Assembly: GCA_963706595.1 (NCBI GenBank)
Contig: OY970166.1
Coordinates: 4,224,001 to 4,288,000, forward strand
Reading direction: 5' to 3'
Source of the DNA: an uncultured cyanobacterium
GTDB lineage: Bacteria > Cyanobacteriota > Cyanobacteriia > Cyanobacteriales > Nostocaceae
DNA length: 64,000 nucleotides
Shown here in pieces: positions 43,814 to 63,678 of this stretch (position 1 is its first letter; every line of letters starts with the position of its first letter). The notes beneath the pieces were generated by a model that worked only from the letters and a program-made list of their open reading frames with translations, was not told where the DNA came from and did not search any database. Both the position numbers and the translations under genes were made by a program.

Positions 43814-45532
43814 TTAACTTCTGAGTTGCTTCATTGACCAAATAATGGCATGAGCGCCTAGCATTTGAGAGTATATTTTTCCCTGATTATCGTGTATAAT
43901 AAAATCTGCGATCGCACTACTCGGAGTTTTCGCTTTTATTTCACAAGAAACATAAAATAGTTCGTTGTGTGGGGTAGGCGCAAATTGTTCAAATTTCTCT
44001 ACTTTTCCCGGTAAGCAACCTTCTTGATGAAAGTGTTGTGTCCAAATCCATAAGGCGTGCATACTCAAGTCTGTGGTATAAGGATTAACCCATCTTACGG
44101 GGAATTGTCCTTGTTTTTGAGCGCTGATTTCTGTCCACAAACATTCTGTGGTGATTTTTTCAGGCGTAATATTTAAAACTCTTTGAACTTCTTGAAATGA
44201 AGGTCCATGAAATAATGTAGCCCCACCATTTTGATAGAACTCTTTTCCTGTAGCAGTAATAATGTGATCTTGATTTAGATTGATAGATTCATAAGTAGGA
44301 ACATGAGGAATTATCCTATGCAGGTTGAGTTGAGCGCTAAAGTGATAATGGGTTTTTCCGGCTGGGTTTTTACTCCAGATTTTAGCTTTAACTACAATTT
44401 TTTCTGAGTTAATTTTCTCAACTTCTTCTATGTCTAGAATGTGTTCTTTGGCTAAGTTGTGATTGAAGGTAATTCCCTTTAAAACTTTGAAATCTGTGTA
44501 ATTGAATAATCGATAGCCGGGATACATTTCCTCACAGCAATTAATTATCCATGTCATTGCACAGGTAGCAGGTAATACTGGCGAACCAGCTATTGCATGG
44601 TCATATAAAAAGGGATTGGCTTCCAGTTTCATCTGGCGACGGATGCGATGATTTCGCAGTTGGGAATCTAACTCTATAGCTGGGGGAAGCAATGGACTAC
44701 CAATGACAACTTGTGCAGTATCATGATGGGACGGGTGCAATTCGTTGACTAACATTTGTGTACCCGCATCCACAGGAATAATATCAAATCCCCTTTCTGC
44801 AAGCGCTTTTTTCAGTTCTGGTGACACCATCCCACTATCCCAAGCGCCCCAGTTAATGGCGACTACGTGACAGTGAGGATGATTTTGCTTGATTAAATGG
44901 GCGGATTTGTTGAGAATTTCGTTAGCGATCGCATAATCAGATTGTCCAAGATTGCCGTAAAATCCAGTTACGGAGGAGAACAATACTAAATGCTGGAGTT
45001 GCTCAAGGTTCACGCAAGTTAGGAGATTTTCTAATCCCTGCACTTTAGCAGTGTAAACCTTTTCAAAATCCTGGTCTGTTTTCTTTTCAATCAGCTTATC
45101 AGCTAAATTTCCCGCCCCGTGAATAATCCCAGTGATTGCACCTACAGCCGCTAATTTTTGCTGTAAATCTGCAACATTGGTGACATCTACACTAATATAT
45201 TCGGCTTGAGCGCCTGTTTGTTGGATACTTGCTAAGGTTTTCTTAATTTCTCGACTGGAAACGATTTTGTTATATATCTTCAGTACACTCATAGGAGTTG
45301 GTTTTTCTCCTTGAGTCAGAAGATTCTCCATAATGCGTTTCTTTAAGGCTGGTTCCTCGATACAATCTTGAGCAAATGCTGGTTCAATTTCTAAAAGTTC
45401 GGAACGACCAAGGAGAATGAATTTACAAGGCTGGTGCTGGGCTATTTTAATCGTACATTGGGCTGTAATCCCTTTTGCACCACCACTTACAACAAAAACT
45501 GATGAAGGACGAATCTGTGTCTGTGTAGTCAT
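43814..45532 (-). CDS. hglG: Ketoreductase + dehydratase-like HglG
   Basis: SGGAKGIT, HGAGNLAD, YAIAN; DH HAIAGSPVLP. Confidence 0.9.
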   Translation of the reverse strand: MTTQTQIRPSSVFVVSGGAKGITAQCTIKIAQHQPCKFILLGRSELLEIEPAFAQDCIEEPALKKRIMENLLTQGEKPTPMSVLKIYNKIVSSREIKKTLASIQQTGAQAEYISVDVTNVADLQQKLAAVGAITGIIHGAGNLADKLIEKKTDQDFEKVYTAKVQGLENLLTCVNLEQLQHLVLFSSVTGFYGNLGQSDYAIANEILNKSAHLIKQNHPHCHVVAINWGAWDSGMVSPELKKALAERGFDIIPVDAGTQMLVNELHPSHHDTAQVVIGSPLLPPAIELDSQLRNHRIRRQMKLEANPFLYDHAIAGSPVLPATCAMTWIINCCEEMYPGYRLFNYTDFKVLKGITFNHNLAKEHILDIEEVEKINSEKIVVKAKIWSKNPAGKTHYHFSAQLNLHRIIPHVPTYESINLNQDHIITATGKEFYQNGGATLFHGPSFQEVQRVLNITPEKITTECLWTEISAQKQGQFPVRWVNPYTTDLSMHALWIWTQHFHQEGCLPGKVEKFEQFAPTPHNELFYVSCEIKAKTPSSAIADFIIHDNQGKIYSQMLGAHAIIWSMKQLRS

Positions 45533-45747: not shown

Positions 45748-46464
45748 TTACTTCTCGAAAGAAGCAACTAAGGTTACGCGTCCTTGGGAACCGTAAGCAA
45801 CTTCGCTGATATAAAGATTGGGGTCGTGCATTTCAGCGATGATATATTCTGCTGACTGTTGGGGATTTATAGCTGGACTTAAGTCAATGGCGCGAGTAAA
45901 GACTTTTGGCCATTCCCATTTCAGAGTTTTGGTTAATCCAAATAATCCTGCACCAATGGCTCCAAAATTAATGTTATGTTCTAAGCCAAAAGCACCATCT
46001 AAACGGTTGACTGTTATGAAACAACTGCGTTCATAACGCGCTACTTCGTTGAGGGTTTGCTTGAGATGTTTGGCTATGAAGAAGACGTGCTTGACAATGG
46101 CTTTTTCTTGTTCTAAGTAAGCTGGGGTTTGATTTCCGGGAAATACTGGATGAATATGGATGAAAGCGCCAATGTTGCCGAAGTGAGTCGCGATCGCAGA
46201 TAATTTATGTTGAAGCAATTCTTCGGTCATATCTGCGAGGACTACGCGATTCACTCCGACTGGTAAGGGCGATTGTTGAGGAACGATAGATGGGGGGAAA
46301 CTTAAAACTACCACTTTCCCGCCGCGATCGCTTAAAGTTTGAGCTAATTTTGAGGTGGTGAGGGAACCATCGTCAGTAATTACACTCACGTGTCCCTCTG
46401 GTAAAGCGAAGTCTAAACTATCCGGTGGTGGGAGGAATTGCAGTTTAGCTGGTCGCCGTGTCAC
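45748..46464 (-). CDS. hglF: HglF (N-terminal structural part of a PfaA-type KR region); frame is open upstream to the A9 run at 46511-46519
   Basis: RLDGAFG, GLFGLTKTLKWEWP..RAIDL motifs; position between hglE and hglG. Confidence 0.85.
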   Translation of the reverse strand: MTRRPAKLQFLPPPDSLDFALPEGHVSVITDDGSLTTSKLAQTLSDRGGKVVVLSFPPSIVPQQSPLPVGVNRVVLADMTEELLQHKLSAIATHFGNIGAFIHIHPVFPGNQTPAYLEQEKAIVKHVFFIAKHLKQTLNEVARYERSCFITVNRLDGAFGLEHNINFGAIGAGLFGLTKTLKWEWPKVFTRAIDLSPAINPQQSAEYIIAEMHDPNLYISEVAYGSQGRVTLVASFEK

Positions 46465-46472
46465 ACCGTCTA

Positions 46473-49400
46473 TTACCTGGACTGGCTGGTAACTAAACTC
46501 CTGCTGAGGCTTTTTTTTTCACCCCCAGCAGCTAGCTTCTGGAGATAATCAACTATTTGACCGATGGTGCGAAGGTCTCCCAGTTCTTCTATATTCGGCT
46601 GGGGTAAATTGGGGTATTTATCTTGCATCGCTCCCAATATTTCTACCCGTTTGATGGAGTCAATTCCTAAATCAGCCTCCATATCCATATCCATTTCTAG
46701 CATCTCTACTGGGTAGCCAGTCTTATCACTGGTGATGCTTAACAAGGTTTCACCCAAGTCTGCGTAATTATCGGTAGCTGCTATTTCTGGTTCTGTTTCT
46801 AATTCTGCGGGGAGGGGGGTAGAGACAACCGGGCTGGTCGTCTCTACGGGAATGGGGATCTCGTTGTCCCCTATGGGGATAAGGGACAAGGGGGATTGAG
46901 TCGATTCTAGCACGACTTCTGGAGTAGTAACAGCAGCACTGCCAGAAACTTGGGATTGCAGGTATTCTACAACTTGACCAATGGTGCGTTTTTCTGATAA
47001 TTCTTCTAAGTTTGGTTTGGGTAGGTCGGGGTACATATCCTGTAACGCGCCCAAGATTTCAACTCGTTTGATGGAGTCAATTCCTAAATCAGCCTCCATA
47101 TCCATATCCATCTCTAGCATCTCAACTGGGTAGCCAGTTTTATCGCTGGTGATGGCTAACAAGTTGTTACCCAATTCGGCTAAGTCAATATTAGAAGCAG
47201 CTACAGGTGCGGGGGGAATTTCGACTACTGGCGCTGGTGCTACTGCTACAGGTGCGGGTGGAATTTCTACTACTGGCGCTGGTGCTACTGCTACAGGTGC
47301 GGGTGGAATTTCTACTACTGGCGCTGGTGCTACTGCTACAGGTGCGGGGGGAATTTCTACTACTGGCGCTGGTGCTGTTTTTAACGACTGTCTTTGTGGG
47401 CTGAGTCGTTACCTGAGTCGAGATAATTTGAGAATATTCTTGTTGGATAAGTTGGAAAAACTTCTTGGCGTATTCTAACTGTTCTACAAGATATTGCTCA
47501 TGGATGCGGAGGGTTTCACCTTGTTGACTGTGAAACTGCATCATTCCTCGTTCTACACTTTCCTTGACAACTAGCTGAAGTTGTGCTGCTTCATCGTTAG
47601 ATTTGCTGTTAGCAAACACAGCGTTCTGTTGCTGCATCAATTGGAAAAACGCTTTGGTATATTCCATCTGATGTTGCAGATAAGTCCCGTGGACTTGCAG
47701 ATTTTCGGTTTGATTTTGCTGGAACTGTGTCAGCAGATATTCTAAACTCTCTAACGCCCGTTGGTAATTTACAGGTTTTTCTGGTGTTGGTTGCATTTTT
47801 GTCTCCTGGGCTATTGCAGTAGGAAGAATCACAGGATTCATTTGAGCCTGGGGTGCAGAATTAGTAGATTTATGTGAAAATTCGGGCAGACTATCTGGAG
47901 GATGGGCAACACGTCCATTGGTGGTATGTTCTTTCACTGCTGGAGTTGCTACTACTTCGGAAAATTCAGGTGCGGTAGTGACAGGTAAACTCACTTGATG
48001 TCCGTTCTGCAAAGCTTCAGTAAAAGCGTTCTTGGTTTTTTCGGAGACATAGTTCATGCCGTTTAAACGCACATTTAACGCCTTCTTCTTCTCTACTGGA
48101 GGTAGTGCAGGTTCTACTTGATAAGGATCGAGATTTTTCAAAGATAAGCCCACTACACGCAATTGTACAGCCGCTTCTCTCAGAGAGCGATCGCTGTTCT
48201 TTTGAGTGCTGGGGTTCAATGAGATGGTAAGATGTGGGCGATCGCCTAAAATATCTTTAACCAAGTTGGTCAAAATCCGTCGGGGACCAAATTCCACAAA
48301 GCAATAACCACCCGCAGCATAGATATTTTCGATTTCCTGTTTAAACATCACCGAATTAGACAGGTGAGTTTCCAGAATTTTTTGAATTGCTTGAGATTCT
48401 TGGGGGTAGGGTTTCCCTGTAACGTTGGTGAAGACAGGAATTTGAGGCTGATTGAATTTAACAGATTTAGTGGCGATCGCAAAGGATTTTTGAGCAAAAG
48501 CAATTAACGGCGTGTGGAAAGCAGCAGACACAGGTAACACCACCGCCGTACAACCTTGTTCCTGTAAAGCTTGTCTCACCTTCGCGATTTCTGCCGTCGG
48601 ACCAGCCAAGACAAATTGCGTCGGAGAATTAAAGTTAGCAATAGTCACCTGGGGAAAATTCCGCAGTACCACCGCAACCTTAGTCATATCTTCCTTCACC
48701 GCCAACATACTCCCAGCATCGTGGTCTGGGTCTTCTGGCGCAGCCATCGCTTGACCTCTAGACTTCACGAGAAACAAATAATCTGCTTCACTCAAAACCC
48801 CAGCAGCCCATAAAGCTGTCAATTCCCCAAAGCTGTGTCCCGCCACAAAATCTGATTTAAATCCCGCTTGTTGCAATATAGAATAAAGACCAGCGCTAAA
48901 TACCCCAATAGCAGGTTGAGCGTATTCTGTGCGTTGCAATGCAGCAATTTGGGCATTTTTTTCTGCTTCATCAAACACCGGATGAGGAAACACAATTTCT
49001 GAAACTGGCTGCAAATTATCTTTAAGTAACAAACTATCCATACAGCCATGTAAACGGCGCATAGTCGGGAAGTTCATCACCAATTCTCGCCCCATTTCCA
49101 GGTATTGCGAACCTTGTCCAGAAAACAGAGAAACAACCTTTCCGCCCAAAGCCATTCCAGAAGAACGGTAATAAATACCTTGGGGATGTTCCCAAGAAGC
49201 TGCGTTAGCTTTATTTCTCAGCCAGTCAATACTCACTTGCATAAACTTGCAGGCTTCTTGCAGATTCTCAGCCACAAACCCAACTCTAGCTGCAATTTGG
49301 GGAATCTCCAGCGATTGACATTCTTGAATTAAAGCCGCAAAGTGTCTGTCACCATCGGCTGACTGCAACTTACCCAGAGTTTCTTCACATTTACTCAAAA

Positions 49401-51015
49401 GTTGAGCCGGATTATTCGCAAATAGCAACACCTCACGGGCTGTACTGTGTAAACGGTAGGGAACGTTGTCTCCAGTTTCGTATTCTTCTAAAACAACGTG
49501 ATAATTTGTTCCACCGAAACCGAAAGAACTCACCCCAGCCCGTCTTGGTGCTTCACCTTCCGCCCGAATCCAAGGTCTGGTTTGGGTATTCAAATAAAAT
49601 GATGAATTCTTGATATCCAGTTTAGGATTTGGTTCAGTAATATTGATGGTTGCGGGTAAAACTTTGTGATGCAAAGCCAAAGCAGTTTTAATCAAACTTG
49701 CAGCCCCAGCAGCAGCTTTGGTATGTCCAATTTGAGATTTTACACTCCCCAAAGCGATATGCTGTCTTTGGGAATCATGTTTGCCAAAGTAATCTTTTAA
49801 AGAACCGAACTCAATCGGGTCTCCAGCCATTGTCCCAGTCCCGTGGGCTTCCATTAACCCCACAGTCGCAGGAGAAAAGTCAGCATCATCATAAGCACGT
49901 TCCAAAGCTTTGACTTGGCCTTCCTTGCGGGGAGCATAAATACTCTTGTAGCGACCATCGCTAGAAGTGCCAATCCCTTTAATCACGGCATAAATTTTAT
50001 CATTGTCCCGTTCCGCATCTTCCAAGCGTTTGAGGACATACATACAAACACCTTCACCCAGCAACATCCCATCAGATTTAGCATCGAAAGGTTTGGCGTT
50101 TTCACTGGGAGAAACGGCTGGGGTTTTGCTGAAAGAAATGTAAGCCATAATTGTGTTGTCAGTGTCAACACCACCGGTCAGCATCATATCAGCCCGATGT
50201 TCCACCAGTTCGCTAATAGCCATTTTCAAAGCACCAAAGGAACTAGCACAAGCCGCATCAACTACACAATTTGTGCCGCCAAAATTCAAGCGGTTGGCAA
50301 TTCTTCCAGCTACCACATTCGCCAACATCCCAGGGAAAGCATTTTCATCCCATTTGATATAGGCGCTTTTAATTTTTTCGATAATTTTTTGGGTATCTTC
50401 ATCAGAAATACCACTGCTTTTAAGTGCCTTTTCCCAAACAGGATACTCTAACCGAGCCGAAAGTGGCATTCCCAATTGCTTGGCCATCGCCACCCCTAAA
50501 ATGACCCCTATCTTTTCGCGACTAAATTCACGGGAGTCACCATAACCAGCATCTTCCATTGCTTCTTTAGCAATCACCAAACTTAATAGCTGGGAAATAT
50601 CTGTAACTTCCAAGATGCTGGGAGGAATGCCAAACTCCATGGGGTTAAAATCAATCTCTGGAATAAACCCACCTCTTTTACAGTAGGTTTTATCTTCAGG
50701 GGTTCTGGGGTTGGGGTCGTAATAATCTTCGACGCTCCAATGTGTGGAGGGGACATCAGTAATACAATCAATTTTATTAACGATATTTTGCCAGTATTCC
50801 CGTAAGTTTCTCGCTTGAGGTAAGAGAGAAGCCATCCCGACAATAGCTATGGGATTTTGTGCTAATTTTCTATTAATTTTGTTAACTGACATTACTGACA
50901 TAGGTGTTTCCTTGCTCAACTTCTTTTCCTCTATTGACCTAATCAAAGTTTTCTCAACACTTTTGATAAGGCTCTCTAACTCTGCCAAAGCCGTATCAAT
51001 TGAATAAGCAGACAT
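46473..51015 (-). CDS. hglE: Heterocyst glycolipid synthase HglE (KS-AT-linker-2xACP); +1 frameshift near 47378-47382 as sequenced
   Basis: DAACAS, HGTGT, GHTK; AT GHSFG and AFH; two DLGIDSIKRVEI ACPs in the downstream frame; about 1513 aa when joined. Confidence 0.92.
47200..47376 (-). repeat. 4 x 45-bp tandem repeat encoding the APVVEIPPAPVAVAP linker
   Basis: Units start at 47200, 47245, 47290, 47335. Confidence 0.95.
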
Positions 51016-59718: not shown

Positions 59719-60978
59719 ATGAAAGAGTTGACGATATTCATTAATCAGTCTTTGCTGAGTTGGCTGGCTATTCAAATGTGTTTAGCGCTGGTGTTTCTGT
59801 TATACCTGCGATCGCACCAAGAAAACATCTTAGCCGATGAGCAGTTACCCAAAACGGCTGTAATTCTTTGTCTGCGGGGAGCCGATCCGTATTTACCTAA
59901 CTGCGTCGAGGCGCTGTTAAATCAGAATTATCCAGAGTACGATTTAAAGCTGATTGTTGATAGTCAAGAAGATCCGGCTTGGCAAATTGTCAATGATATT
60001 ATCAACGAACAAGGAGCCATCAACGTCCAAGTCAGCCCTCTGAGGACTATACGACATGACTGTAGTCTCAAATGTAGTTCGCTGTTGCAAGCTGTTTCCG
60101 AGTTGGATGATTCCTATCAGGCGATCGCCTTAGTAGATGGTGATACTATTGTTCATACTAATTGGTTACGTGAATTAGTTAGTCCTCTCGCTGATCCCAA
60201 AGTCGGCGCAACCACGGGGAACCGTTGGTTTGTACCTACAGGTAACTATTGGGGGTCTTTGGTCCGCTACATCGGTAATGTCTCTACTGTGGTGCAAATG
60301 TACCTGTTCCAAGTTCCTTGGGGTGGAACTTTGGCGATTAAAACAGATGTGCTGCGCCAAACAGGTCTGTTAGATAAGTGGAGACAGGCTTTCGGCGAAG
60401 ATTTTATGATCCACAAAATCCTCAAAAAACATGGGATGCGGGTTAAGCTTGTACCTTCCTTGATTATGCTCAATCGGGAAGAGTGTGATTTACTGGGATT
60501 AATAGACGCACTCAAGCGTCTCATCTTGTATTCTCGACTTTATCATCCCAGTTGGTTAGCGATAGTTGGTGATGCAGTTTCGAGTATTCTGTTTCCTTTT
60601 GTGGCCATAATTCTGTTTCTATTATCGTTGTTAGATGCACAGTGGGATTTAGCCGTTTTATTGTTTTCCACTTATTGCATTTACACTGTGGGACTACTCT
60701 TAGTAACGCTGATTTTAGAGTTAGGGGTAAGCCAAGTGATTTACTCTCATGGTCAGCCCACTTCAAAATTATCAATGGCGACAATAGCCAAAATATTCAT
60801 TGCTATTCCCCTCACGCAATGGGTATATGGATTAGCTTTGCTCTCGTCATTATGGATGTCAACAGTTAAATGGCGCGGTATTGTTTACCGTGTGCAAAAT
60901 GCCTGGAATATCCGATTAGTTGAATACCATCCTTATGATTTGTTGGATCAACCTATTGACAGCAAAATTTCTCTTTGA
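59719..60978 (+). CDS. Membrane GT2/ceramide-glucosyltransferase-like protein, paralog 1
   Basis: CLRGADP, DGD, TTGNRW, PWGG, WRG. Confidence 0.88.
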   Translation: MKELTIFINQSLLSWLAIQMCLALVFLLYLRSHQENILADEQLPKTAVILCLRGADPYLPNCVEALLNQNYPEYDLKLIVDSQEDPAWQIVNDIINEQGAINVQVSPLRTIRHDCSLKCSSLLQAVSELDDSYQAIALVDGDTIVHTNWLRELVSPLADPKVGATTGNRWFVPTGNYWGSLVRYIGNVSTVVQMYLFQVPWGGTLAIKTDVLRQTGLLDKWRQAFGEDFMIHKILKKHGMRVKLVPSLIMLNREECDLLGLIDALKRLILYSRLYHPSWLAIVGDAVSSILFPFVAIILFLLSLLDAQWDLAVLLFSTYCIYTVGLLLVTLILELGVSQVIYSHGQPTSKLSMATIAKIFIAIPLTQWVYGLALLSSLWMSTVKWRGIVYRVQNAWNIRLVEYHPYDLLDQPIDSKISL

Positions 60979-61081
60979 GGTAAATCAATGAGACGCGATG
61001 GAGACGGGATGAAGACGCGATGAATCACGTCTGTACAAGAAAGTTCATCTTTCAGAGTCAACCATACAGCAGTAATTAAAG

Positions 61082-62344
61082 ATGAACGACTTGGTAATAT
61101 TCATATCTAGGTGTCTAACCGTTAGCTTGGCTGTTCAAGTATGTTTTATGTTAGTGTTTTTGTGGCATCTATCCTCATCCCCAAAAAATCTCTTAGCAGA
61201 TGAAGATTTACCCAAAACGGCAGTGATTCTTTGCCTACGTGGCGCTGATCCGTTTTTGAGTGATTGTTTGCGGGCGCTGTTGAATCAGAATTACACGCAG
61301 TATGATTTAAAAATAGTCGTTGATCGGATGGAAGATCCAGCATGGACAATTGCTACGGATACTGTCCAGGAACATGGCGCGACTAATGTGCAAATCAGCC
61401 CGTTGCGAATTATCCGGAGAAATTGCAGTCTCAAATGTAGTGCTTTAATCCAAGCGGTGACAGAATTGGATGATTCTTATCAAGCGATCGCCTTAGTAGA
61501 TGCTGATACAATTGTTCATGAGCATTGGCTGCGTGAATTAGTCACTCCTTTAGCTCATCCCCATATTGGCGCGACAACGGGGAACCGTTGGTATGTCCCT
61601 ACAGGTAGCCATTGGGGTTCTATAGTTCGGTATATGTGGAACGTATCTGCGGTGGTGCAGATGTATTTATATGGTATTCCTTGGGGCGGGAGTATGGCGG
61701 TAAAAACAGCAGTCATTCATCAAACAAAATTGCTGGATAAGTGGGGAAAAGCCTTCTGTGAAGATACAATGATGCGTCATATTTTAGGTAAACATAAAAT
61801 ACAGATTAAATTTGTACCTTCTTTGATGATGCTGAATCAAGAAGAGTGTGATTTAACTGATTTAAAAACTTGGATGCAGCGCCAACTTTTGTTTTGCAGA
61901 CTTTATCACCCCCACTGGTTTGCAGTAGTAGGTAACGCGATTTTAACAATCCTGTGTCCTACTCTTTTGAGTGTATTGTTTGTAGCAGCTTTGCTAACTG
62001 GACAATGGTATGCTGCATCATTATCTCTGAGCTACTATAGCAGCTATGTAGTGGCATTACTATTGATTGTACTTTTCTTAGAACAAGCAGTACAGCTAGT
62101 TATTCGCGCTGATCATCAACCAAGTGCAAAATTATCCGTTGCGGCAATTTTCAAGATGTTAATGGGAATTCCCTTAACACAATGGGTTTATGGGTTCGTA
62201 TTCCTCTCTTCTCTCTGGATGTCAAAAGTTAAATGGCGTGGGATCACCTATAAATTCAAAAGTCCCTGGAAGATTCGGTTAGTTGAATATCGTCCTTATC
62301 GGTCGGGAGACAAACCTGTTTTGCCAAATATTTCTTTGAATTGA
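61082..62344 (+). CDS. Membrane GT2/ceramide-glucosyltransferase-like protein, paralog 2
   Basis: CLRGADP, DAD, TTGNRW, PWGG, WRG; tandem paralog of 59719-60978. Confidence 0.88.
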   Translation: MNDLVIFISRCLTVSLAVQVCFMLVFLWHLSSSPKNLLADEDLPKTAVILCLRGADPFLSDCLRALLNQNYTQYDLKIVVDRMEDPAWTIATDTVQEHGATNVQISPLRIIRRNCSLKCSALIQAVTELDDSYQAIALVDADTIVHEHWLRELVTPLAHPHIGATTGNRWYVPTGSHWGSIVRYMWNVSAVVQMYLYGIPWGGSMAVKTAVIHQTKLLDKWGKAFCEDTMMRHILGKHKIQIKFVPSLMMLNQEECDLTDLKTWMQRQLLFCRLYHPHWFAVVGNAILTILCPTLLSVLFVAALLTGQWYAASLSLSYYSSYVVALLLIVLFLEQAVQLVIRADHQPSAKLSVAAIFKMLMGIPLTQWVYGFVFLSSLWMSKVKWRGITYKFKSPWKIRLVEYRPYRSGDKPVLPNISLN

Positions 62345-62415: not shown

Positions 62416-63678
62416 ATGAACAAGCAACCGCTTCGTATTGCTCTGTTTACAGGATTGTATGCTCCTTTTTTAACAGGGGTTTCAATTGCAGTCCATCAAA
62501 GGGTGCGCTGGTTACTCGAACAAGGGCATGAAGTTTTTCTAATCCATCCAGAAATTAACGATCAGTATCCTAAAAATGTTAGCAATCGTCCTATGGCAGG
62601 ACTGGAAGAATTGCAGTGTTTTCCTAATTTTTCTGCTTATGCTTTCCCCACAAAGCCACTAATTTTTTACAAGTCTTTACCCCAACCATTACACTATCGC
62701 CATTGGAGTGATACTAAGTTATTAGAAAAGTTTAAACCCAATATTGTAGTAGTAGAAGAAGCTCCGCAAATGCGAGGTTTCTATTCAATGTTCTTGCAAG
62801 GTTATGGTCGCCCCATTGGGGTTGAATATGCGAAGAAAACGGGGACTCCAATTATTTCTGTTTTCCACACTGATATTGTTGCCTACATTCAATACTACTT
62901 GGGTAATCAGATTTTCAATTTGATGCGTCCGATTATTCCCTTTTTAGTCAAGCAGTCCACTGAAGTCTATGATCGCAATTTATTTCCTTCTCAAGGACAA
63001 CTCCTAAAGTACAAAGAACTGAATTGCCAACGGGGTGAATATGTTCCTTATCAAGGAATTGATTGTGAAAAATTTCACCCCCGCAATATTATCCACAACC
63101 CGATTCCCGACGACAACAGACCAACTATCTTGTTTGTGGGACGCATTACGGCGGAAAAAAATGTCACCCAACTTATCGATATGTTTCCGCTAATTGCTGC
63201 CAAAATTCCTGATGTTCATTTGGTGATTATTGGTAGTGGTCCTTTAGATGAAGAACTGCGTCGGCGCTCCCAAAAGTTTGAAGGTATTACTATGTGGGGT
63301 GAGTCCCACGGTACAGAACTTTTGGGTTGGTTTGCTCGTGCAGATGTATTTGTCAACCCTTCTGCGACTGAAAATTTCTGCACTACAAATACCGAAGCGC
63401 TGGCTTCCGGTACTCCTTTGGTGGCTGTGGTTGCACCTTCAAGCTTTGAGCAAGTTTTTCCTGGTCGCAATGGCTTTTTAGCTGAAGCCAATAATCCTCA
63501 AGATTTTGCCGATCAGGTAGCGGCAATTTTGGCAAATTCTCAACTTAAAGCAGAAATGGCTGAACAGGCTCGTCCTTCTATACTCAAATATGATTGGTCG
63601 GCGTGTTCACAAAAGTTTGAAGATAAGCTTTATGAGATAGTTCAAGATGTTAAGAAACTAGAGCCAACAACTGTTTAA
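62416..63678 (+). CDS. hglT: GT4 glycosyltransferase HglT
   Basis: RIALFT, FVGRITAEKN, ENFCTTNTEALASG; terminal gene of the hgl island. Confidence 0.82.
   Translation: MNKQPLRIALFTGLYAPFLTGVSIAVHQRVRWLLEQGHEVFLIHPEINDQYPKNVSNRPMAGLEELQCFPNFSAYAFPTKPLIFYKSLPQPLHYRHWSDTKLLEKFKPNIVVVEEAPQMRGFYSMFLQGYGRPIGVEYAKKTGTPIISVFHTDIVAYIQYYLGNQIFNLMRPIIPFLVKQSTEVYDRNLFPSQGQLLKYKELNCQRGEYVPYQGIDCEKFHPRNIIHNPIPDDNRPTILFVGRITAEKNVTQLIDMFPLIAAKIPDVHLVIIGSGPLDEELRRRSQKFEGITMWGESHGTELLGWFARADVFVNPSATENFCTTNTEALASGTPLVAVVAPSSFEQVFPGRNGFLAEANNPQDFADQVAAILANSQLKAEMAEQARPSILKYDWSACSQKFEDKLYEIVQDVKKLEPTTV

Follow-up and report, generated by a model that had tools for sequence, protein, structure and literature searches.

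A conserved A-run at the hglE-hglF junction of cyanobacterial glycolipid synthases as a probable transcriptional slippage site

To our knowledge, few cases of productive transcriptional slippage in chromosomal bacterial genes are known. In dnaX of Thermus thermophilus, RNA polymerase slips on a run of nine with stops near in both other frames (PMC5009743), the long product being encoded in one ORF and extra A's leading to the short product. Slippage on A-runs is also described for tssM1 of Citrobacter rodentium (A11) and tssM3 of Yersinia pseudotuberculosis (PMC4256274). In these genes the run lies ahead of a partner-binding domain and two length variants are made, the default being short or long depending on the species; for tssM1 the ratio of the variants was shown to matter (PMC4256274). 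In the Roseiflexus IS630 element, slippage is stimulated by a stem-loop, a nascent-RNA hairpin that the slip motif T5C5 needs directly 5' of it (PMC5009743).

We analysed a window of 64,000 nucleotides (the whole stretch of DNA under study) from an uncultured cyanobacterium of the Nostocaceae, together with its relatives. The window contains an A-run at the junction of hglE and hglF that is probably (we estimate about 0.7) a programmed transcriptional slippage site, from which HglE would be made with and without the pseudo-ketoreductase HglF, with a default that flips between lineages. It would resemble Thermus dnaX in encoding a long product in one ORF with a short product arising from extra A's, and tssM1/tssM3 in the position of the run and the species-dependent default. 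The hglE case differs from Thermus dnaX in that it concerns a lipid megasynthase, the run is kept class-wide, the default frame depends on the lineage and the case is known here from sequence. The tssM runs are described for two species only, whereas nearly every canonical hglE examined has the run. A hairpin directly 5' of the hglE run is a candidate counterpart of the Roseiflexus IS630 hairpin, although a pure A-run, unlike the IS630 motif, should slip unaided.

The hgl island of Anabaena PCC 7120 and the PfaA protein of PUFA synthases show the same gene order and domains as the locus described here (PMC11804610). In PCC 7120, HglE has 1541 aa and HglF has 162 aa; of the latter it is said that it 'probably interacts with HglEA'. 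Formation of the glycolipid layer is listed as requiring both genes, and in Calothrix PCC 6303 E and F form one ORF (PMC11804610). That report treats the E/F arrangements as fusions or fissions, unlike the recoding reading given here; its main text and supplement file make no mention of frameshift, nor does the supplement file mention slippage. Keywords for such a cluster gave no match in the main text of PMC3711429. The literature searched, which covered few subscription papers, yielded no description of recoding in hglE or pfaA, and within that literature the hglE site appears to be previously undescribed.

Layout of the hglE-hglF junction

The gene order hglE-F-G-D/C-A-B-hetN-hetI identifies a heterocyst glycolipid island with a PfaA-type synthase, and its domains follow in series as KS-AT-ACPn, KR-DH, KS-KS-AT, ER, ACP-reductase, SDR and PPTase. 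The PfaA model (TIGR02813) is tiled in succession by HglE (model positions 1-1164), HglF (1758-1980) and HglG (1991-2572). The 5' part of hglE (47191..51015, minus strand), with ketosynthase and acyltransferase matches in Pfam, is continuous in relatives and leaves its frame here at an A5 near 47380. By ORF and domain reading, the 3' part (46473..47174, minus strand) encodes two acyl carrier domains and ends in this allele with a TAA at 46475-46473. There follow the linker and hglF frame (45748..46518, minus strand), with a putative non-catalytic ketoreductase domain, and hglG (43814..45532, minus strand), with catalytic ketoreductase and dehydratase domains in Pfam. Toward the other side of the window lies a tandem pair of genes for HpnI-like glycosyltransferases (419 and 420 aa; 59719-62344), and after it a GT4 gene (62416-63678), as expected for the far end of the hgl island.

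On the minus strand the junction reads GGG GGT GAA AAA AAA AGC, with nine A's at 46519-46511 near the end of hglE. The hglE frame closes at the TAA, giving a C-terminal end of SLSRSLVTSQSR*. In the -1 frame a TGA (46521-46519) adjoins the run and is followed by an open frame (KKPQQEFSYQPVQVIDGVTRRPAKL) as far as the hglF stop at 45748, all as the preliminary description had claimed. The third frame, that of an A11 or A8 transcript, is closed by a TAG at 46493..46495 on the minus strand. The candidate start codon of hglF, a GTG at 46464 (minus strand), is not conserved. The lengths given in that description for short HglE (1513 aa) and for the HglE-F fusion (1755 aa) hold if reading shifts by one base across the break near 47380. 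An exact protein look-up returned no match.

The A-run in relatives and its conservation

Among 30 loci compared, all 29 relatives from other genomes have an A10 and a single fused hglE-hglF frame, and the congeners are likewise A10 and fused (10/10). The 80 named loci comprised 72 fused with A10, six fused with A11, one split with A9 and one split with A11; an open frame of <300 aa was seen in four of the best 150 listed matches of a 389-genome family search. The junction sample included 60 family picks spanning genera, three of them picked for looking split, as well as 20 second copies and homologs from outside Nostocaceae, and removal of duplicates reduced 243 hits to 226 distinct junctions. 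The preliminary description had proposed looking for a conserved A-run among orthologs, and one is indeed present: a run of 8-11 A occurs in 201 of the 226 distinct homologous junctions across Cyanobacteriia. This conservation supports its proposal of a recoding site at which short HglE and an HglE-F fusion are both expected. Its picture of a split A9 as the typical arrangement has to be replaced by a fused, in-frame default, with 146 of 157 Nostocaceae junctions of the canonical hglE clade in frame.

All 159 tips of the canonical clade carry A9-A11, and the run is present in each of the 163 Nostocaceae junctions at which HglF ends as its own domain. Split alleles within the canonical clade are scattered singletons on the tree. 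An A9 pattern count over the family, too loose in that 22 of 30 loci among the matches listed were off target, yielded a single further A9 split of the canonical type (L308). Outside Nostocaceae the run occurs in 26 of 33 junctions, 19 of them split, and 17 of these 19 need one more A. The KS-AT-ACP frame is continuous up to the run in four of the five split clusters from outside the canonical clade that were examined in full, the exception (L338) having a second break. Altogether 40 of the 226 junctions are split, 39 of them with the run, and 24 of the 25 run-less junctions are in frame; the 24 homologs without a run indicate that not every such synthase needs two products. In an unrooted tree of 92 rows, from which most canonical A10 rows were omitted, run-bearing rows are spread throughout and run-less rows fall mostly into one group of long second-cluster genes. 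Among metagenome contigs, 13 of 18 pattern matches were junctions (A10 in 12, A9 in one), and 12 of the 13 are in frame. A near-invariant A9 site (context ...GAAGCGGCG-A9-C) found once each in about 60 genomes of one genus (L101-type Nostoc loci) is unrelated and by context no hglE junction.

The occurrence of A9, A10 and A11 alleles among close relatives would also be expected if the run were a contingency (phase-variation) tract, with replication slippage in the DNA toggling HglE-F in subpopulations. We regard this as very unlikely, given the in-frame state of nearly all canonical Nostocaceae and metagenome junctions, the splits in the same direction in sister genomes outside Nostocaceae (L193/L195, L224/L231, L238/L240, L242-L244), and the reported need for both genes in forming the glycolipid layer.

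Several observations show that the bases of the run are kept, and not merely the peptide. This 5.57-Mb genome contains 74 A9/T9 runs and two A10/T10 runs. Five genomes have 8, 9, 8, 3 and 21 exact A10 runs, and for four of the genomes coordinates place the hglE junction among these runs. The residues [EQ]KK[KN] are spelled with A10 in none of 24 cases elsewhere in this genome. All 146 fused canonical orthologs have A at the third position of each of the three run codons, as do all 38 that are left after thinning to <80% identity. Among control K/E/Q columns none of 28 reaches 100% (0/26 after thinning), with a mean of 0.78 and maxima of 0.98 and 0.95; no p-values are attached to this conservation because kin are not independent. 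The residues vary at the ends of the run (E or Q first; K, N or T last) while the A's are constant, so it is the bases rather than the peptide that are kept. The A-run itself is thus under selection.

The A+1 frame meets a stop after a median of 3 codons as compared with 12 in controls, and within 5 codons in 39 of 45 orthologs (controls, 26%). A conserved peptide tail in the A-1 frame, a by-eye impression, was rejected, its stop distance matching the control (median 8 versus 7).

These results bear on the reading that there is no recoding, that is, that the gene is simply fused, that E-K-K-K is kept for the protein, and that all split alleles are assembly errors or pseudogenes. The uniformly fused A10 congeners speak for it, as do the frameshift errors in this assembly (9 events in 152 kb) and the second break in hglE, and for this one A9 alone the error reading may well be true. 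As a general account it is extremely improbable in view of the synonymous control (146/146 versus 0/28), the avoidance of A10 elsewhere in the genomes, the consistent splits in distant lineages and the placement of all splits but one at junctions with the run. The preliminary description had raised an A10 making simply a fused gene as an objection to its own proposal; relatives do carry A10, but conservation of the run extends to its nucleotides, and hglE-hglF is therefore more than simply a fused gene.

The A9 allele of this assembly

Whether the A9 seen here is an assembly error is about an even question. All nine frameshifts sampled in this assembly (152 kb, 128 orthologous ORFs) are insertions. 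Relative to a congener, the genome as a whole has a frameshifting insertion about every 17-30 kb of coding sequence, a rate that calls for caution with other frameshift findings in this genome. The preliminary description had taken the breaks in the window to be +1 insertions, in agreement with the nine sampled events; the break near 47380, however, can be read as +1 or -2. There (about 47377-47381, minus strand) this genome has A5 in place of the AGCAAAA of relatives, which lack the break, so that it has one base too many or two too few. The A5 adjoins a 45-bp tandem array (47200-47376, 3.9 copies), and this second hglE break is probably an assembly error.

In favour of a real A9, the sampled frameshifts are all insertions, two T10 runs are kept in this assembly, and split A9 alleles are also seen in draft assemblies (L118, L163, L283, L308). 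Against it, the congeners all have A10 and the same gene is broken at another A-run; in addition, 7 of the 11 splits in the canonical clade were found in assemblies with <=10 contigs, which by hand count make up 90 of the 389 family genomes and toward which the locus picks were biased. For the canonical-clade splits, sequencing error fits as well as tolerance. Systematic undercalling of A10 as A9 was considered and rejected: the two orthologous T10 runs are kept, a plain one-base loss was seen at 0 of 10 alignable sites (15 tried), and A9 runs number 74 here as compared with 61-82 in congeners. The conclusion on the slippage site is independent of whether this A9 is real.

Slippage, frameshifting and the two HglE products

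The site is real and conserved, and very probably programmed. The preliminary description had left the choice between a -1 ribosomal frameshift and slippage; transcriptional slippage fits better and the ribosomal shift is less favoured. In the slippage reading, RNA polymerase would add, and less often drop, A's at the run (46511..46519, minus strand; A10 in nearly all Nostocaceae orthologs), which lies between the last acyl carrier domain and the HglF domain, and the mixed mRNA pool from one gene would yield both KS-AT-ACPn (short HglE) and KS-AT-ACPn-pseudoKR (HglE-F). Because the canonical Nostocaceae junctions are mostly in frame, the fusion would be their default and slippage would make the short product: with A10 in the DNA, translation of slipped mRNA (mainly A11) would end only a few codons past the run. 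For A9 alleles, that of this assembly included, and for most of the non-heterocystous cyanobacteria examined, the short form would be the default and one added A would give the fusion.

The same two proteins could come from a uniform mRNA by -1 ribosomal frameshifting of the Escherichia coli dnaX type at A_AAA_AAG or A_AAA_AAA, with an upstream GGAGG possibly helping. Of the 201 runs, 143 contain A_AAA_AAG in frame, as the A10 allele does, the stop in the -1 frame is close, and exactly a -1 shift is required by 32 of the 39 split junctions that have the run. Yet only 4 of those 32 splits have the heptamer A_AAA_AAG in frame; the junction in this window, with A_AAA_AAA only, does not, and the other seven splits call for the opposite shift. 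GGAGG lies <=9 nt upstream in 20 of 45 orthologs but in 4 of 26 junctions outside Nostocaceae. The heptamer needs seven bases, whereas the runs mostly stay 9-11 long, the length for efficient polymerase slippage (PMC5009743). A conserved 3' structure was not found in 45 orthologs: the 50 nt after the run give a mean z of -0.15 (2/45 below -2), and a 70-nt window gives z -1.07 (14/45 below -2) with no common fold. Both tRNA-Lys, UUU and CUU, are present in this genome, in contrast to the single tRNA-Lys (UUU) that would suit such shifting, and the presence of both has been linked to slippage in Thermus dnaX (PMC5009743). An RNA contig with A11, described below, is a further hint against a uniform mRNA. 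Since any A9 contains an in-frame A_AAA_AAA, ribosomal shifting stays a candidate, and codon phase was dropped as an argument against it; on balance we consider it unlikely. Polymerase slippage is favoured by the run lengths, by the seven splits that lie beyond -1 frameshifting, by the lack of a shared 3' structure, by the scarcity of in-frame A_AAA_AAG where a -1 shift is needed and by the presence of both lysine tRNAs.

A predicted RNA hairpin (46520..46547, minus strand) abuts the run on its 5' side, with -11.1 kcal/mol and z -1.65 in this genome. In 45 canonical orthologs its mean z is -2.43 relative to synonymous recoding, with 36 of 45 below -1.5, and 20 other windows gave z of -0.93 to +0.44 in the same test. 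Across the alignment 78% of cells pair, one pair being G-C in 21 and A-U in 16 sequences, and covariation exceeds that of shuffles. In a tree-aware covariation test, co-changes in the hairpin were not above those of control pairs, RNAalifold gave no consensus structure for it, and the encoded peptide accounts for much of the stem. A role as stimulator is therefore suggestive only, and the hairpin may tune the slippage rate.

The conserved-looking hairpin is also what would be expected if hairpin and run were some other RNA signal (pause, partial termination, processing or antisense-linked), with the short product a by-product. For PCC 7120, an antisense transcript covering the 3' end of hglE, whose level has risen by 12 h into nitrogen step-down, has been tabulated (PMC3141674) and would fit such a signal; it may overlap the hglE/hglF junction. 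However, no terminator-like site was found at the junction on either strand, the hairpin is by eye not apparent in most junctions beyond the canonical clade, and HglF synthesis from start-less split genes would be left unexplained; this account is highly improbable.

RNA and DNA contigs of relatives were drawn from four of 24 listed sequencing runs, with A-run length rebuilt from difference tables. One RNA contig (X13) and one DNA contig (X12) share an organism code and the differences listed elsewhere, yet the A-run is A11 in the former and A10 in the latter; the extra A is in the direction predicted from the near A+1 stop. X13 is one contig of depth 15.5, from another sample and study than X12, and could reflect a substrain allele or a library error, so that RNA longer than DNA at the run is weakly shown. 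A second RNA contig (X18) has A10, and a metatranscriptome contig (X9), from one study, stops at the edge of the run, a weak hint. Among the sequencing runs searched for reads of the strain itself there were none, the best run containing 0.40 of the words.

How HglF would be made apart from the fusion bears on the slippage reading. An ATG lies between run and HglF core in one of 39 split junctions; when GTG and TTG are counted as well, 10 of 39 have a candidate start there. In ten split alleles, a protein beginning at the first Met would have 109-197 aa (160 here), with part of the fold lost. A conserved start codon for a free HglF is thus lacking. HglF is predicted to fold as a complete SDR-like domain (pLDDT 92), and in alignment to FabG its glycine-rich motif and catalytic Tyr-Lys motif are degenerate. 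From alignment and structure prediction, HglF appears to be a non-catalytic pseudo-ketoreductase. From its colinearity with PfaA and from natural F-G fusions, it may be the docking half of a ketoreductase that recruits HglG. Judged from sequence, both HglE proteins presumably exist, and the balance between long and short chains in the synthase may be important. A wider reading, possible but doubtful, is that an ancient recoding element across Cyanobacteriia sets the ratio of docking to non-docking chains, that heterocyst formers gained a slippage-tuning 5' hairpin, that slippage controls the output, reduction state or chain length of the glycolipids, and that 'hglF' is no gene of its own.

If the slippage reading is true, productive slippage would act on the key enzyme of the heterocyst oxygen barrier in nearly all heterocyst formers examined, and on its counterparts in distant cyanobacteria. 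The annotation of hglE/hglF and the mutants of the model strain would have to be re-read. It would be explained why the annotated HglF (162 aa) is short of about 78 residues of its own fold and why hglE appears split in two in some genomes. The run would offer a simple handle on the control of an iterative lipid synthase by its subunit composition, and in other expression hosts the product mix would depend on the polymerase.

Two further arrangements were observed among the homologs. L334 and L335 are split as KS-AT-ACP and pseudoKR-KR-DH, with frames overlapping by about 70 codons, and one added A at the run would yield a whole PfaA-like chain. A second hgl-like cluster in the genome studied here (C1:1941298-1944993, L196) encodes E, F and G together in a single frame of 2399 aa; its junction is without an A-run, as are many long copies of the same kind.
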